Below, one piece after another: positions 11,994 to 26,509 of a DNA stretch of 64,000 bases. The notes beneath the pieces are model-generated. The model saw nothing but the letters and a program-made list of their open reading frames with translations. It was not told the origin of the DNA and ran no database searches. The DNA comes from an uncultured Nitrososphaerota archaeon (GTDB lineage: Archaea > Thermoproteota > EX4484-205 > JAAOZP01), in NCBI GenBank assembly GCA_964416155.1, contig CAYQCW010000004.1, positions 30,658-94,657 on the forward strand. Direction: 5' to 3'. The position numbers and the translations under genes are program-made. Position 1 is the stretch's first letter, and the number at the start of each line of letters is the position of its first letter.

Positions 11994-12173
11994 AAAGGTT
12001 AATATAGGCCTCCCAGTGGGCACACTGCTTAGGAGGTGCGCTGAGTGTACCATAGTATTCACGCTCCAAGGGGGCGGGACACCGTCCACCAACTGCAGAG
12101 GCCCCGCTGCAAGCCCAGCCTCCGCTAGGGAAACAAGGGTTTTCAACAGGCTGTTTGCAAGAGGTGTTTTAAA
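11994..12173 (+). promoter_or_regulatory. ilvBNCD promoter and long conserved leader
   Basis: AAAGGTTAATATAG promoter, GCTTAGGAGGTG (12027-38), ACGCTCCAAGGGGGCGGGAC (12061-80); mirrored upstream of leuA. Confidence 0.75.
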
Positions 12174-13847
12174 ATGGTTTCAGGGTCAAGACTACTGGTG
12201 GAGAGGCTGAGGGAGAACGGGGTTAAAACCATCTTCGGAGTGCCTGGCGGTGCGGTGCTCCCGTTCCTGGACGAGCTGTATAAGGCGAACGACATAGAGT
12301 TCATTCTGACTAGGCATGAGCAGGGTGCTGCCCACATGGCTGACGGTTATGCTAGGGCAACCGGCAGAATCGGCGTAGTCCTAACCACATCCGGCCCCGG
12401 TGCAACTAATCTTGCAACAGGCATTGCCAACGCCTACTTGGATTCCACACCGGTTTTAAGCATAGCCGGCCAGGTTGCGACGCCGCTCATAGGCTACGAC
12501 GGTTTCCAGGAGGCTAATATTTTCTCCATGATGATAGGGTTGACTAAGATGAACTTTCTACCCAGGGATTTGAACGAGCTTAACTCCGCCCTTGAAAACG
12601 CTTTTAAAATAGCCTTATCCGGAAGACCGGGGCCTGTTCACATAGATGTTCCTAGGGATGTTCAGCTGATGGAGGGTGAGCCAGACGATGATTTCTACGT
12701 TTACTCTTATACTCCTCTCTCTCCTTCAGACGAGGAGATTCTAACAGCCTCAAGGATGCTGGTTGAGGCTGAGAGGCCTGTTATCATCGCCGGGGGAGGA
12801 GTAATAATGTCAGGCGCGCACAGCGAGCTTATTGCTCTCGCCGAGCTTCTAAACGCTCCCGTGGCGACGACGCTGATGGGTAAGGGAAGTATTCCTGAGG
12901 ACCACCCGTTGTCCCTGGGGATGCTTGGGATGCATGGGAGGCTCGGCGCGATCAAGGCTGTTCAGGAGAGCGACCTGGTTCTCGCCGTAGGCATGAGGTT
13001 CAGCGACAGGACTACGGGTAAGCTAAGCGGCTTCGCGCCGGGGGCTAGGAAGATACATGTTGACATAGATAGGTCTGAAATCGGGAAGCTGCTTAAGCCC
13101 GAGCTTGGTATCGCCGGGGACGCTAAACAGGTTTTAAACAGGATTCGCGAAGCTGTTCTCAGGCTTTTCCAGAAGGATAAGGCTGGCACATGGGGTGAAA
13201 GAGTGAAGCAGCTCAGGAAGGAGTCTGAATTTCTTTACGATTACGATGCTGTCCCAGTTGATCCGAGTGCCGCCGTTAGGGTTCTCAGCGACTACGTTAG
13301 GCCTGAAGACTTTGTGACGACTGAGGTTGGCCAGTGTCAGATGTATGCTTCGCTTCACTTCACAGCTAGGCGTCCAAGGCAGTTCATATCCTCCGGCGGC
13401 CTGGGGACAATGGGATTCGGGCTTCCGGCTGCAATCGGGGTTAAGGCGGCCTTCCCGGGGAGCCGTGTTTTCGACATAGCTGGGGACGGCAGCTTCTTCA
13501 TGACTTGCAACCAGCTTCCTGTTTCAGTCGACTATAATCTACCGATCATAGTCATGGTTCTCAACAATTATTTCCTGGGGATGGTGAGGCAGTGGCAGGA
13601 GCTCTTCTACGGCAGAAGGTATATTGCCGTGGACTTGAAGGGTAGGGCTGACATAACTAGGGTTTCAGAGGGTTTCGGCGCCAGAGGGTTTAAGGCGACG
13701 AGGATAAGCGAGCTTAAAGACGCTCTTGAAACCGCTTTAAAACAGGATGAGACGACTGTGCTCGACGTTATTGTCGAGAGGGAGGACAATGTTTTCCCAA
13801 TGGTTCCCCCGGCTTCCCCGCTTGACAGCGTTATCGTAAGGAGGTAG
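12174..13847 (+). CDS. ilvB: Acetolactate synthase large subunit
   Basis: FGVPGG, RHEQGAAHMADGYAR, TSGPGATN, GLGTMGFGLPAAIG, GDGSF...NN TPP motif. Confidence 0.97.
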   Translation: MVSGSRLLVERLRENGVKTIFGVPGGAVLPFLDELYKANDIEFILTRHEQGAAHMADGYARATGRIGVVLTTSGPGATNLATGIANAYLDSTPVLSIAGQVATPLIGYDGFQEANIFSMMIGLTKMNFLPRDLNELNSALENAFKIALSGRPGPVHIDVPRDVQLMEGEPDDDFYVYSYTPLSPSDEEILTASRMLVEAERPVIIAGGGVIMSGAHSELIALAELLNAPVATTLMGKGSIPEDHPLSLGMLGMHGRLGAIKAVQESDLVLAVGMRFSDRTTGKLSGFAPGARKIHVDIDRSEIGKLLKPELGIAGDAKQVLNRIREAVLRLFQKDKAGTWGERVKQLRKESEFLYDYDAVPVDPSAAVRVLSDYVRPEDFVTTEVGQCQMYASLHFTARRPRQFISSGGLGTMGFGLPAAIGVKAAFPGSRVFDIAGDGSFFMTCNQLPVSVDYNLPIIVMVLNNYFLGMVRQWQELFYGRRYIAVDLKGRADITRVSEGFGARGFKATRISELKDALETALKQDETTVLDVIVEREDNVFPMVPPASPLDSVIVRR

Positions 13848-17014: not shown

Positions 17015-18031
17015 ATGTCTACACCATGCTCCGAGGGTTTTTCGGTTAAGCTGGACCGTTTCGCAACCATTCGCCTCAGGGAAGGGGAAACGCTTCTGAA
17101 AACAGGCTTAGACGAGGCTTTAAACTATCTTTTCATATCTCACGCTCACTTCGACCATCTGGTTAAGTCTGACGCTAAGAGAGCAATGGCAGTATGCTCG
17201 GAGGAGACTCTTCTGCTTTCAACGCTCAGAGGGCTTGAAGTAAATCGTGCTGAGCAGAACCGTTTTACCCTTCTCGACTCAGGCCATATCCTTGGGTCTA
17301 AAGCCCTGCTCATAGAAACCGATAAGGGTGGAATACTGTACACTGGGGATGTTAACACTTCGCCGGTTGAAGGCATACCTAGGCAACGCTTCCCCCGGGT
17401 TCACACGCTGATAATAGAGTCTAACTACGGTCGCCCCAGCCTGGTTTTCCCTCCTAGGAGACAGCTGATAGGGGAGATTGTTGACTACGTGAGTGAAACA
17501 GTTAAGAGGGGTAGGCCCATGGTTCTAATGGGGTATCCGCTGGGGAAGTCTCAGCATGTTCAAATGGTTCTGGACACTGTCCTCCAAAGCGTTGTCGAAA
17601 CATACGTTTCACCATCCATAGCGGAGTATAACAACGTTTACAGGCTTTTCTCAGTGGGAATAGGGGGGAAGAAAGTTTTCACGCCTCAGTCCCCGGAGCT
17701 GCCGGATGGCTCTTGGGCTCTCTACTATCCCAATGTCTCAGGCAGGAATGCTTTCATGCAGCTCGTCAAGAGGAAGTATGACGCTGTCTCCATAAGCTTC
17801 TCAGGCAGGTCGCTTTTCAACTGGTATAGTGAGACGCTGGGTGTGGACAAGGCTTTCCCCTTGAGCGACCATGCTGATTTCAACGGCCTGATGGAGGTCG
17901 TGAGGGAAACCTGTCCGGAGAAGGTTTTCACAGTCCACGGTTTCCCGGAGGAGTTTTCAAGGGAGCTTAGGAGGCTCGGCTACGATTCTAAACCATTACG
18001 TCCAAGCATGGAGGCCAGCTTCAGGCTTTAG
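17015..18031 (+). CDS. MBL-fold (beta-CASP-like) hydrolase/nuclease
   Basis: HAHFDH, GHILGS, YTGD, ESNYG, SDHAD motifs. Confidence 0.85.
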   Translation: MSTPCSEGFSVKLDRFATIRLREGETLLKTGLDEALNYLFISHAHFDHLVKSDAKRAMAVCSEETLLLSTLRGLEVNRAEQNRFTLLDSGHILGSKALLIETDKGGILYTGDVNTSPVEGIPRQRFPRVHTLIIESNYGRPSLVFPPRRQLIGEIVDYVSETVKRGRPMVLMGYPLGKSQHVQMVLDTVLQSVVETYVSPSIAEYNNVYRLFSVGIGGKKVFTPQSPELPDGSWALYYPNVSGRNAFMQLVKRKYDAVSISFSGRSLFNWYSETLGVDKAFPLSDHADFNGLMEVVRETCPEKVFTVHGFPEEFSRELRRLGYDSKPLRPSMEASFRL

Positions 18032-24162: not shown

Positions 24163-25694
24163 CCGCCAACCCTCTTAATCTGCAGAAGCCTGTTGGCCCC
24201 GTTCAGTATTGCGTAAACCCCTGCTAGCACAATGTCCTCGCTGAATCCTTTCGCAGTCACGCTCCGCCCCTCATCGTCTGAAACCCTTACCGTAACCTCT
24301 GCAAGCGCGTCTGTGCCTCCTGTGATCGCCTCCAGCCTGAAGCTTTCAAGCTTTATCTTAACCAGGTCGCCGAGAAGCCTGCTGACAGCCTTCATCGAGG
24401 CGTCTATCGGCCCGACTCCGAACTCAGCCCCCCTCCACGCCTGTTCTCCTCTCCTTATCTTTATTGTTGCTGTCGGCGTCGTGTTCAACCCTGTAACCAC
24501 GAGAAGCTCTTCAAGCTCTATACGGTCCTTATCACTAACCCCGTACCCTATGACGCTTTCAGCTATCGAGGCGAGCTCAGCGTCAGTAACCTTCTTACCC
24601 TTGTCGCCAATATCCTTGACTATTTTAAGAACCTGCTTCAACTCTTCTTCGCTCAGCCTATACCCCATTTCTTCAAGCTGCGCTGAAATCCCGTGGACAC
24701 CGGCGTGCTTCCCGGCTACCAGCCTTCTCCTAGCCCCGACGAACCCGGGGTCTATAGGTTCATAAGTCTCTGGGGATGCCAGTATGCCGTGAGTATGGAT
24801 CCCGCTCTCATGGGAGAAAGCGTTTTCCCCAACTATAGGCTTGTTCACAGGTATTGCTATGCCGGTTATCAGGGAGACCAGCCTACAGGTGTTGTATATC
24901 TCTTTAAACTTCAAGCCTGTTTCAACACCGTACAATACTTTAAGGGAAACCGCTACCTCCTCTAGGCTCGCGTTGCCTGCTCTTTCTCCCAGCCCGTTCA
25001 CCGTCACGTGTGCCTCAGCAGCCCCTCCCTCGATTCCTGCAAGCGTGTTCGCGACAGCTAGGCCCATGTCGTTGTGGCAGTGTACCGCAACCGGGATCCT
25101 CAGGGCTTCACAAATCCTTTTAACAATCTCCCGCATGGCTAATGGGGTTGCAACGCCAACAGTATCGGGGATATCGACTGTGCTTGCCCCGGCTTCTTCA
25201 ACCCTCCTGTAAAACTCCACTAGGAAATCAATACTTGTCCTGGTGGCGTCTTCGGCTGAAAACTCTATTTTCATACCGTAGGATTTAGCGAGGTCTATGG
25301 ATTCAACAGCCCTGCGTATGGCTTCATCCCTGCTTATCTGCAACTTCTTATTCAAATGTATGTCCGAGGTCGCTATGAAGAGATGGATTCTCCCCGCTCC
25401 AGTTGAAGCAGCCTTCTCAATATCCTCCTTCATGCATCTGGATAGGGCAGCGATCTCCGCGTTCAACCCTTCCCTAACTATCAGCTTAATAGCCTCCTCC
25501 TCGCCGCGCGACGTCGCAGGGAAGCCTGCCTCCACCACGGGTACTCCAAGCGCGTCAAGCTGTCTCGCTATCCTAAGCTTATCCTCAGGCGTAAGCGCGA
25601 CCCCTGGAGTCTGCTCACCGTCCCTTAGAGTAGTGTCGAAAAGAATCGCCCTGTCAGGTATTTTAGCCTCAGTAAGGTATCCTCTCCAAACCAT
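24159..25694 (-). CDS. leuA: 2-isopropylmalate synthase (LeuA/CimA family)
   Basis: DTTLRDGEQTPG, HCHNDMG, GLGERAGN, HESGIH, C-terminal regulatory domain; citramalate synthase cannot be excluded. Confidence 0.9.
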   Translation of the reverse strand: MVWRGYLTEAKIPDRAILFDTTLRDGEQTPGVALTPEDKLRIARQLDALGVPVVEAGFPATSRGEEEAIKLIVREGLNAEIAALSRCMKEDIEKAASTGAGRIHLFIATSDIHLNKKLQISRDEAIRRAVESIDLAKSYGMKIEFSAEDATRTSIDFLVEFYRRVEEAGASTVDIPDTVGVATPLAMREIVKRICEALRIPVAVHCHNDMGLAVANTLAGIEGGAAEAHVTVNGLGERAGNASLEEVAVSLKVLYGVETGLKFKEIYNTCRLVSLITGIAIPVNKPIVGENAFSHESGIHTHGILASPETYEPIDPGFVGARRRLVAGKHAGVHGISAQLEEMGYRLSEEELKQVLKIVKDIGDKGKKVTDAELASIAESVIGYGVSDKDRIELEELLVVTGLNTTPTATIKIRRGEQAWRGAEFGVGPIDASMKAVSRLLGDLVKIKLESFRLEAITGGTDALAEVTVRVSDDEGRSVTAKGFSEDIVLAGVYAILNGANRLLQIKRVGG

Positions 25695-25864
25695 TACGAC
25701 CCCCTCCTAAAACAGGTTTAAAACAATATCGTTTTTCAACAGTCTCTAATAGAGGTGTCACTGTTTCTGGAACGCAGGTGGTCTCGCCCCCTTTGGGCGT
25801 TACGAGTCATGAGTATGCTACACACCTCCTTAGCGGAGACTGCTTGACTACTATATTAACTTTT
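25695..25864 (-). promoter_or_regulatory. leuACD promoter and long conserved leader
   Basis: On the minus strand: AAAAGTTAATATAG, GCTAAGGAGGTG (25834-25823), ACGCCCAAAGGGGGCGAGAC (25800-25781). Confidence 0.75.
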
Positions 25865-25870
25865 CTACGG

Positions 25871-26509
25871 TCAGCCGGATAAAGTTAGAAATCCTTCTAA
25901 ACCGTTTCTAATCATAACTATTCCGAAAGCCACTATTATCAGGTTGAATATTTTAGCAACAAGCTTCGAAGGCGTTCTGCCGATACTCACCATAATCCTC
26001 TCACCGTTCACGAGAATCACGTATGCTAAAACAGCGTTCAGCAGTATTACTAGTATGCAGGTGAAAATATTGTAGGGAGGATTAGATATTATTATGACTG
26101 TGGAAATACTCCCTGGGCCTGCGAGAAGCGGCGTCGCAAGGGGGAAGACAGATATCTCCTCAGCCCTCTCCCCTCTCAGCTCGCTCTCCTCCCCCACAAG
26201 TATGTACTTCAAGGATATTGCTACGAGAACCATTCCTGAGGCAACGTAGAAGTCGTAAAGCCTTATCCCTAGGAAGTTGAACATTACAGTTCCAAGTAGG
26301 GCGAAGAAAACTAACACCACTGTTGCGGCGACAACAGACTCCCTTATTATTTTCCTCTTCCTCCCGCTTGAGAAGGATTCTAGGAAAGTGTGGAAGACAG
26401 GGATGTTTCCGACAGAATCCAGTATGACGAACAATAGTATGAATGCTTTCGTGAAACGCTCCGCTTCAGCCGCAAGCTCTAGACTCATGCCTGGTCGAAT
26501 AGGCTTCAA
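25871..26509 (-). CDS. MarC family integral membrane protein
   Basis: ILDSVGNIPVF, FPLATPLLAGPGSI; true start probably slightly downstream. Confidence 0.9.
   Translation of the reverse strand: MKPIRPGMSLELAAEAERFTKAFILLFVILDSVGNIPVFHTFLESFSSGRKRKIIRESVVAATVVLVFFALLGTVMFNFLGIRLYDFYVASGMVLVAISLKYILVGEESELRGERAEEISVFPLATPLLAGPGSISTVIIISNPPYNIFTCILVILLNAVLAYVILVNGERIMVSIGRTPSKLVAKIFNLIIVAFGIVMIRNGLEGFLTLSG

Follow-up and report, generated by a model that had tools for sequence, protein, structure and literature searches.

The window analysed here is a 64,000-nucleotide stretch of contig CAYQCW010000004.1 from an uncultured Nitrososphaerota archaeon, and the element under study is the segment of about 140 nucleotides (nt) that precedes leuA on its minus strand. 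The identity of leuA is given by the HMGL-like, HCS_D2 and LeuA_dimer domains of its product; leuC and leuD follow downstream. LeuA is 96–97% identical to proteins of Candidatus Brockarchaeota metagenome-assembled genomes from hot springs, and the region most likely constitutes, in a Brockarchaeota-like archaeon, the 5' leader of the leuACD mRNA. This leader is conserved and is present in two copies in the window, ahead of leuACD and ahead of ilvBNCD. It harbors a short upstream open reading frame (uORF) preceded by a Shine–Dalgarno (SD) sequence, SD1, as well as two segments complementary to SD1 (anti-SD sites A and B), the second of which can also pair with SD2, the SD of leuA itself.

The leader was compared in two sets of sequences, namely 14 leuA leaders (13 from relatives and the window copy) and 12 ilvB leaders (11 from relatives and the window copy), giving 26 leaders together. 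The relatives of both sets show 78–98% protein identity, and a further, distant ilvB leader (L217) comes from a locus with 57% identity. The same leader elements are found in the 13 leuA and the 11 ilvB leaders of the relatives.

Promoter and predicted start of the leader

The archaeal promoter of the leuA copy (25852–25866, minus strand) is formed by a B recognition element-like sequence AGAAAAG and the TATA box TTAATATA (25859–25852). The motif GAAA.GTTAATATAG is found also ahead of the ilvB copy and in all relatives, 30–35 nt 5' of the GGAGGTG sequence. With the usual archaeal TATA-to-start distance, the start of transcription is predicted at about 25831–25829, i.e. 0–3 nt 5' of GGAGGTG. 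SD1 (25822–25829, minus strand) reads GGAGGTG(T), with GGAGGTG at 25829–25823 and GAGGTGT at 25828–25822, and is invariant in 25 of 25 aligned leaders.

Inverted repeats lie between the TATA box and SD1 in L011 and L014 and in the ilvB leaders L106, L207 and L208 (CCCCTAA..TTAGGGG, GCCCTT..AAGGGC and GCCC..GGGC). Their sequences are unlike each other and the symmetry is retained; they could represent an operator or a transcript that starts further upstream.

Upstream open reading frame

The uORF of the leuA copy, MTRNAQRGRDHLRSRNSDTSIRDC, occupies positions 25736–25810 of the minus strand and consists of 24 codons and a TGA stop. Across the leaders its size is 24–29 codons, and it lies unannotated in the “intergenic” 140 nt before leuA or ilvB. 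A start codon 4–13 nt 3' of GGAGGTG in the frame that encodes R-G-R-D is present in all 26 leaders, compared with 0 and 2 of the 26 for the other two frames. The start codon is subject to turnover in which the frame is kept: most leaders have GTG-TAC, L207 has acquired ATG-TAC by a 1-nt deletion, and most members of the window subclade have lost the GTG and gained an ATG two codons later, L015 retaining the in-frame GTG too. The stops TAG, TGA and TAA interchange at a single alignment column. Deletions inside the uORF keep the frame (6 nt in L011, 3 nt in L215), and deletions of 1 and 2 nt are restricted to the interval from SD1 to the start codon (L207 and L015). To judge from these sequence comparisons, the uORF is presumably translated. 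SD1 is then probably the SD of the uORF and simultaneously a mimic of the leuA SD. The sequence-only reading of this locus had treated the 5' GAGGTGT as a pairing arm, and so it is, while it turns out to be also a perfect SD with a conserved in-frame start codon.

The most conserved part of the uORF is a 12-nt core, AAGGGGGCGAGA (25782–25793, minus strand), which encodes R-G-R-D. It is invariant in all leuA leaders and equal to them in the ilvB leaders except for an exchange of CGA for CGG. The core belongs to a constant block A-x-R-G-R-D-x, and the operon-specific codon follows immediately after this block. In the leuA leaders it is an invariant Leu codon CTG (14 of 14; 25777–25775 in the window), located at a fixed distance from RGRD. 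In the ilvB leaders it is a Val codon GTC, with a Leu codon CTG three codons later (12 of 12). Eight of the 12 ilvB peptides moreover terminate in L-R-stop, and the anti-SD CCUCC includes the codon for this Leu. In E. coli, ilvBN is attenuated by valine and leucine and the leu operon by leucine, and the parallel between the codons of the two kinds of leader and those attenuators is suggestive.

Second positions of the core codons never vary and third positions vary most. The codon for the second Arg is CGA, the rarest codon of the window (18 of 13317 codons; 2% of Arg codons), replaced by CGG in three ilvB leaders; it could serve as a built-in pause or could be imposed by hairpin pairing. Site A overlaps the H-L codons and site B the D-T-S codons of the uORF, and RNA structure and coding sequence are superimposed in the leader, as in bacterial attenuators.

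Possible competing pairings of the two Shine–Dalgarno sequences

Site A (CACCT, 25776–25780, minus strand) is the first anti-SD-like partner of SD1 and overlaps the Leu codon CTG. Site B (ACACCTC, 25752–25758, minus strand) is the main anti-SD: it can form 7 bp with SD1 or 5 bp (through CCUCU) with SD2. The latter, AGGAGGGG, is located at 25708–25701 and the leuA ATG at 25694–25692 (together 25692–25708, minus strand), and the SD is directly preceded by TTTT (25712–25709). Pairing of GAGGTGT with either CACCT or a perfectly matched ACACCTC, as well as the AT-rich tract before the leuA SD, had been noticed from the sequence alone, and both are found on the minus strand where that reading placed them. 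It had put the second site about 25 nt beyond the first; the site exists, at a start-to-start distance of 22 nt and with a gap of 17 nt. The two pairings, AGGTG with CACCT (5 bp) and GAGGTGT with ACACCTC (7 bp), share the same 5' bases and are mutually exclusive, as had been supposed.

Both sites are well conserved in the leuA leaders. SD1 can pair with site A in 100% and with site B in 96.9% of the alignment cells of the 14 leaders, so that the second site, whose conservation had been named as the point to check, is indeed kept across the relatives; site B can pair with SD2 in 97.1% of cells. The corresponding values in the ilvB leaders are 100% for SD1 with CCUCC and 87% for CCUCC with SD2, and site A is not conserved there. 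The changes that affect one side of a pairing are mostly C to U and retain a G.U pair. Since the pairings use G.U, the structures are specific for the sense strand.

Site B forms an island of conservation between variable flanks in both leader families. A sliding duplex scan shows it to be the strongest partner of both SDs, again in both families, with duplex energies of about -11.5 kcal/mol for SD1 and -8 to -9 kcal/mol for SD2; site A and the 5' arm of hairpin H2 (described below) give weaker peaks. In four ilvB leaders (L212, L213, L215 and L218) the uORF ends before the anti-SD, and CCTCC persists beyond the stop; the retention of site B in these leaders argues for a role at the RNA level.

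The single sequence would hardly have sufficed for this assignment. Dinucleotide shuffling of the downstream part of the leader yields ACACCTC in 1.25% of cases, and at least two perfect 7-bp complements arise somewhere in the 170 nt in 21% of shuffles. Taken alone, the window sequence is weak evidence, its pairing hardly exceeding chance, and the weight comes from the relatives.

Hairpins and the U tract

Ahead of site B the leader contains two hairpins, one of them with an alternative form. H1 (25811–25823, minus strand; columns 10–12 with 20–22 of alignment A2) is short and covers the 3' end of SD1 and the region of the uORF start. Its pair 12:20 covaries, being GC in 7 sequences and AU in 5. 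The hairpin has one U.U mismatch in the window leuA copy, and its ilvB equivalent GGUGC:GUACY pairs in 100% of cells. The linker between H1 and H2 is not conserved.

H2 (25785–25799, minus strand) has the sequence CGCCC-AAAGG-GGGCG, encodes A-Q-R-G-R and pairs in 95.7% of cells in the leuA and 100% in the ilvB leaders. It varies in the 5' arm only, by changes of C to U or to a mismatch, and the 3' arm is invariant. The distant L217 lacks the 5' arm owing to a deletion, and in L218 one of the pairs cannot form. The same 3' segment, GGGGCG (25790–25785), can alternatively pair with CGTTCC (25769–25774, minus strand) to form H2', in 85.7% of cells of the leuA leaders; for its ilvB counterpart, GGGGGCG:CGUCYRCC, the value is 100%. 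The columns that vary in the ilvB core region are all unpaired or wobble-compatible in H2', and H2' is retained in L217. The hairpin listed as a leader element by the sequence-only reading is thus present at 25799–25785, with the addition that it and both anti-SD sites are located within a uORF or at its end.

Farther downstream (25709–25739, minus strand) an AU-rich hairpin formed by AAAAC (25735–25731) and GTTTT (25724–25720) covers the uORF stop, and the TTTT tract follows just before SD2. Pairs 94:115 and 97:112 of this hairpin covary; covariation in the leader is limited to these two pairs and the one pair of H1. The TTTT is invariant in the leuA leaders, and most leaders have a run of 4–6 U ahead of the main SD. 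The leader contains no GC-rich terminator; what precedes SD2 is the AU-rich hairpin and the tract of 4–6 U. Archaeal RNA polymerase terminates at U tracts without a hairpin, and the U tract, or the AU-rich hairpin, may act as a terminator.

An outer helix between CAGTCTC (25842–25836) and GAGACTG (25746–25740), both on the minus strand, appears in a minimum-energy fold of the leader and was rejected: it holds only in the window subclade and its 5' arm lies upstream of the predicted transcription start. It would extend the duplex of SD1 and site B, and one of its pairs runs A-U, G.U and G-C among close relatives; it is broken in L007–L014.

The leader of ilvBNCD and the distant leader L217

The second copy (11999–12176, plus strand) was located by a motif search and is followed by ilvB, ilvN, ilvC and ilvD; a BLAST search of the leader against the window had missed it. 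Its parts follow in the same order, all on the plus strand: the TATA box (11999–12006), SD1 (12032–12038), the uORF VYHSIHAPRGRDTVHQLQRPRCKPSLR (12045–12128) with the core at 12068–12079, the Val codon GTC at 12084–12086 and the Leu codon CTG at 12093–12095, the anti-SD CCTCC (12119–12123), SD2 with the sequence GAGGTG (12161–12166) and the ATG at 12174.

The distant leader (L217:760–1012), whose IlvB is 57% identical, carries the uORF MVMSMVRCTRGRYPVYQILCVL, which is probably leaderless as read from its sequence. Its core and H2' are kept and the first hairpin arm is gone. The tail of the peptide, V-Y-Q-I-L-C-V-L-stop, is rich in codons for branched-chain amino acids, and L217 is the sole leader with such a tail. 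The anti-SD, UCUCUG, overlaps the last codons and the stop, and a tract of six U lies 4 nt 5' of the SD.

Proposed mechanism

The organization described above can be tentatively explained by a leader-peptide attenuator that works through competition between SD and anti-SD sequences and acts mainly on translation; we favor this explanation, giving it somewhat less than an even chance. The position of the ribosome on the uORF would determine whether the anti-SD pairs with the SD of the uORF or with that of leuA. On a leader free of ribosomes, or on one that is quickly translated because leucine is ample and the uORF is read through, SD1 would be either occupied by initiating ribosomes or held by site A and H1; site B would then mask SD2, and leuA would be poorly translated. 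When charged tRNA-Leu is short, the ribosome would stall with the CUG in its A site and cover site A. SD1 would thereby be free to capture site B, which it should win from SD2 because 7 bp are stronger than 5 bp, and SD2 would be exposed and leuA translated. The U tract just 5' of SD2 might add premature termination of transcription. In the ilvB leaders, where the anti-SD is at the end of the uORF and has a Leu codon inside, the stalled ribosome would mask the anti-SD directly.

A three-way switch on translation made up of SD1, site B and SD2 is plausible in itself. The sequence-only reading had proposed a conformational switch, and this proposal is supported in part. The pairings are exclusive and conserved, that of site B with SD2 included, and folding under constraints makes the two states isoenergetic (-33.0 versus -32.9 kcal/mol at 37 °C). 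The other part of the evidence does not follow: compensatory changes are absent from the helices of the SD sequences and the free fold is neither of the two states. As for a ligand, nothing in the analysis points to one.

Several observations weigh against the attenuator. Without constraints the minimum of energy is reached by a third structure, one that pairs SD2 with the region of site A, and the whole leader folds no better than shuffled sequences (z = -0.62). No compensatory double change is seen in any helix that involves SD1 or SD2, because both SD sequences never vary; the SD pairings are compatible with the data, short of being proven by them. When a ribosome footprint was moved along the leader in equilibrium modelling, SD2 was closed nearly always at 37 °C, whatever the state. 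At 60 °C, with a footprint of 28 nt, a ribosome at the CUG of the leuA leader gives no opening of SD2 (0.89-fold). SD2 opens only when the footprint extends over site B, up to 1.9-fold in leuA leaders and 3.5- to 6-fold in ilvB leaders at 60 °C; a stall at the ilvB CUG gives 3.5-fold opening at this temperature, and 4- to 6-fold is reached once site B is covered. If the model is true, it must rest on the kinetics of co-transcriptional folding, which is beyond equilibrium modelling.

The coding side of the explanation has its own difficulties. All three frames are long-open, the other two as long as that of the uORF or longer, and an open frame was accordingly rejected as evidence for coding. 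Outside the core no codon periodicity was detected. The third positions of the AGG, GGG, GTC, CAA and CTG codons never vary, which is better explained by RNA pairing (H2 and H2') than by selection on the peptide. The leader has a single regulatory codon, or two, rather than the runs typical for attenuators, and RGRD is changed to RGRY in L217. Finally, the transcription start, and hence the location of SD1 at the extreme 5' end, is a prediction. Metatranscriptome contigs from hot springs (about 92% identical; runs X23 and X24; positions 24900–26300) cross the MarC gene, the leader and leuA unbroken, owing to either read-through transcription or DNA carry-over, and gave no information on the start site.

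Alternative explanations

The most obvious competitor is a metabolite riboswitch, which we consider unlikely. Here GGAGGUG paired with site A would close a small three-way aptamer composed of H1, H2 and the core. Stabilization of the closing helix by a branched-chain amino acid or a precursor would leave site B free to sequester the leuA SD; without the ligand GGAGGUG would take site B and the SD would be open, the uORF being a by-product of the SD mimic. The succession of anti-anti-SD, anti-SD and SD is the one classically found in translational riboswitches, and an aptamer would account for the invariance of the 12-nt core even at synonymous sites, for the location of the variable columns in the loops of H2' and for the retention of an SD-like GAGGUG in L217, where it is unusable as the SD of the uORF. 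The equal energies of the two states are also in its favor. The aptamer is, however, ill-defined: the linker between H1 and H2 is unconserved, L217 has no H2 and L218 a weakened one, many ilvB leaders lack site A, the stability of the fold does not exceed that of shuffles and no Rfam family matches. A riboswitch also leaves unexplained the frame-specific starts, the interchange of stops, the indels in multiples of three and the choice of Leu versus Val and Leu codons. Strong conservation of the core could alternatively reflect a trans-acting factor, either an RNA-binding protein responsive to branched-chain amino acids or an uncharged tRNA, recognizing the core together with H2 or H2'. Its binding would shift the equilibrium of SD and anti-SD pairings or block the ribosome, similarly to what was suggested for the actinobacterial LEU element. 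The core is conserved far beyond the need of a simple stem and is common to both operons, and of H2 the 3' arm alone is invariant. A protein was invoked also for the LEU element of leuA (PMC1262725), which gives the argument a precedent. On the other hand, no candidate regulator gene adjoins either operon, no features of a kink-turn (K-turn) or T-box were recognized on reading the sequence, with Rfam giving no match, and the invariance of the core is already explained by its double use in H2 and H2' or by R-G-R coding. A trans-acting factor therefore seems distinctly unlikely to us.

It is also conceivable, albeit very unlikely, that the peptide itself is the sensor, so that A-x-R-G-R-D-x in the exit tunnel arrests translation in response to a free amino acid and not to codon starvation, by analogy with TnaC, SpeFL or the fungal arginine attenuator peptide. 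In both types of leader the operon-specific codon comes exactly one residue after the end of the conserved block, second codon positions in the block never vary, and a single Leu codon suits arrest at a specific A-site codon better than classical attenuation. Against this, the block is altered in several leaders (D to Y in L217, D to E in L013, A to T in L218), and the invariant synonymous sites point to a constraint on RNA. Arrest at high amino acid would moreover open SD2 under the pairing model, the opposite of what a biosynthetic operon requires. Least probable of all, and indeed highly improbable, is the absence of any switch, the SD- and anti-SD-like words being due to chance in a purine-rich and C-rich leader, or the conserved inverted repeat being a DNA operator. 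Complements of 7 bp are not rare in a single sequence, as the shuffles demonstrate, and the z-score of the fold, the lack of compensatory changes and the multitude of near-isoenergetic folds would be expected in this case. The site B island, which is found in two paralogous leader families and 24 relatives, speaks against chance. As to an operator, G.U pairs are mismatches in DNA and on the other strand, and the most conserved block lies about 40–50 nt downstream of the predicted start, which is unusual for an archaeal operator. Readings of the core as a K-turn or as part of a T-box were rejected on its sequence.

Distribution of the leader and genomic context

A covariance model of the first 70 nt of the leader (R1) matches only the leaders described here. 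In the window it finds the two copies before leuA and ilvB and no third one, and with the same model the leader is absent from all 67 leuA loci of archaea other than Brockarchaeota. A loose pattern scan across metagenomes gave one true match (L106) among the 120 matches listed. A search of the whole window against Rfam 15 at the gathering score yielded no leader-related family, and both leaders searched at E-values up to 10 gave just two weak matches, to unrelated families.

The closest outgroup leuA (61% identity; L219–L222, a Guaymas Basin lineage) is preceded by an AT-rich spacer of 82 nt, and the leader is absent; the leuA leader is therefore restricted to the clade from hot springs. The gene order Rpr2-leuA-leuC in L219–L222 is unchanged and the MarC gene is absent.

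Among the 40 open reading frames (ORFs) of the window that were surveyed, 18 have an SD-like motif ahead of them and 22 have none. To judge from these motifs, SD-dependent initiation is used in this genome. The motifs are found mostly at operon-internal genes, and several of the 22 ORFs without an SD have A/T-rich, promoter-like sequence at the start codon and appear leaderless. The leaders of leuA and ilvB, with about 140 nt, are atypical in comparison with many other first genes of the window, ahead of which an SD-like motif is missing. Directly after ilvD and in the same orientation (17015–18031, plus strand), a gene encodes a 338-residue protein that contains RMMBL, the RNA-specificity domain of metallo-beta-lactamase RNases.

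Comparison with known attenuators

Attenuation by leader peptides is a textbook bacterial mechanism. A literature search retrieved no archaeal example and nothing on the leaders of Brockarchaeota. The leader might be the first archaeal attenuator with a ribosome-sensing leader peptide, in which a single sensor codon after R-G-R-D reports on charged tRNA-Leu (and tRNA-Val) and the SD of the uORF serves as a decoy that draws the anti-SD away from the SD of the biosynthetic gene; we regard this more specific assertion as possible, although doubtful.

The leader does not belong to the T-box regulators: no T-box family matches in Rfam (gathering score or E-values up to 10), and a UGGN discriminator in a bulge was not found on reading the sequence. 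The LEU element upstream of actinobacterial leuA, in which the Leu codons of a uORF belong to the strand paired with the SD of leuA (Seliverstov et al. 2005, PMC1262725), is closer. It resembles the leader in the uORF upstream of leuA and in the same ambiguity between leader peptide, riboswitch and protein. The LEU element is bacterial, contains a run of Leu codons and a pseudoknot, and has no sequence similarity to the leader; a test for its features found only single Leu codons in sites A and B and detected no pseudoknot. In contrast to the LEU element, the anti-SD described here pairs also with an SD mimic at the 5' end. Mycobacterial leaderless short ORFs with runs of Cys codons act as cysteine-responsive attenuators of the downstream operon (bioRxiv 10.1101/834739). 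The common trait is a short uORF before an operon, and the uORF of L217 is seemingly leaderless as well and ends in codons for branched-chain amino acids. Unlike those bacterial ORFs, the Brockarchaeota leaders of the window begin with an SD and not with a start codon.

The leu, ilvBN (ivbL) and ilvGMEDA attenuators of bacteria have, like the leaders in the window, a leader peptide ahead of operons for branched-chain amino acids and codons that match the pathway (Leu for leuA, Val and Leu for ilvB), alternative hairpins with a shared central arm (here H2 and H2') and a U tract before the structural gene. They differ in the tandem runs of regulatory codons, of which there are only one or two here (one GTC and one or two Leu codons in the ilvB leaders), in the GC-rich terminator, whose place before the U tract is taken by an AU-rich hairpin, and in the Rfam leader models, which do not match. 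The leader would work like the classical attenuators and is not a member of their class, since it lacks the codon runs and the GC-rich terminator that help to define them.

A close mechanistic counterpart is the translational attenuation of bacterial ermC and cat, where, as here, a leader ORF has its own SD. In those systems an upstream segment masks the downstream SD until a ribosome that stalls on the leader ORF rearranges the pairings and sets this SD free, and by analogy the same is proposed here. The differences are that this leader is archaeal and serves amino acid biosynthesis rather than drug resistance, that a Leu (or Val) codon short of its charged tRNA is presumed to cause the stall, and that the anti-SD would be captured by the SD of the leader ORF itself, acting as an SD mimic. 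If this is true, archaea too couple translation of a mini-ORF to the control of a biosynthetic operon, and they do so with a compact design in which an SD mimic and two anti-SD sites are combined with a single sensor codon.

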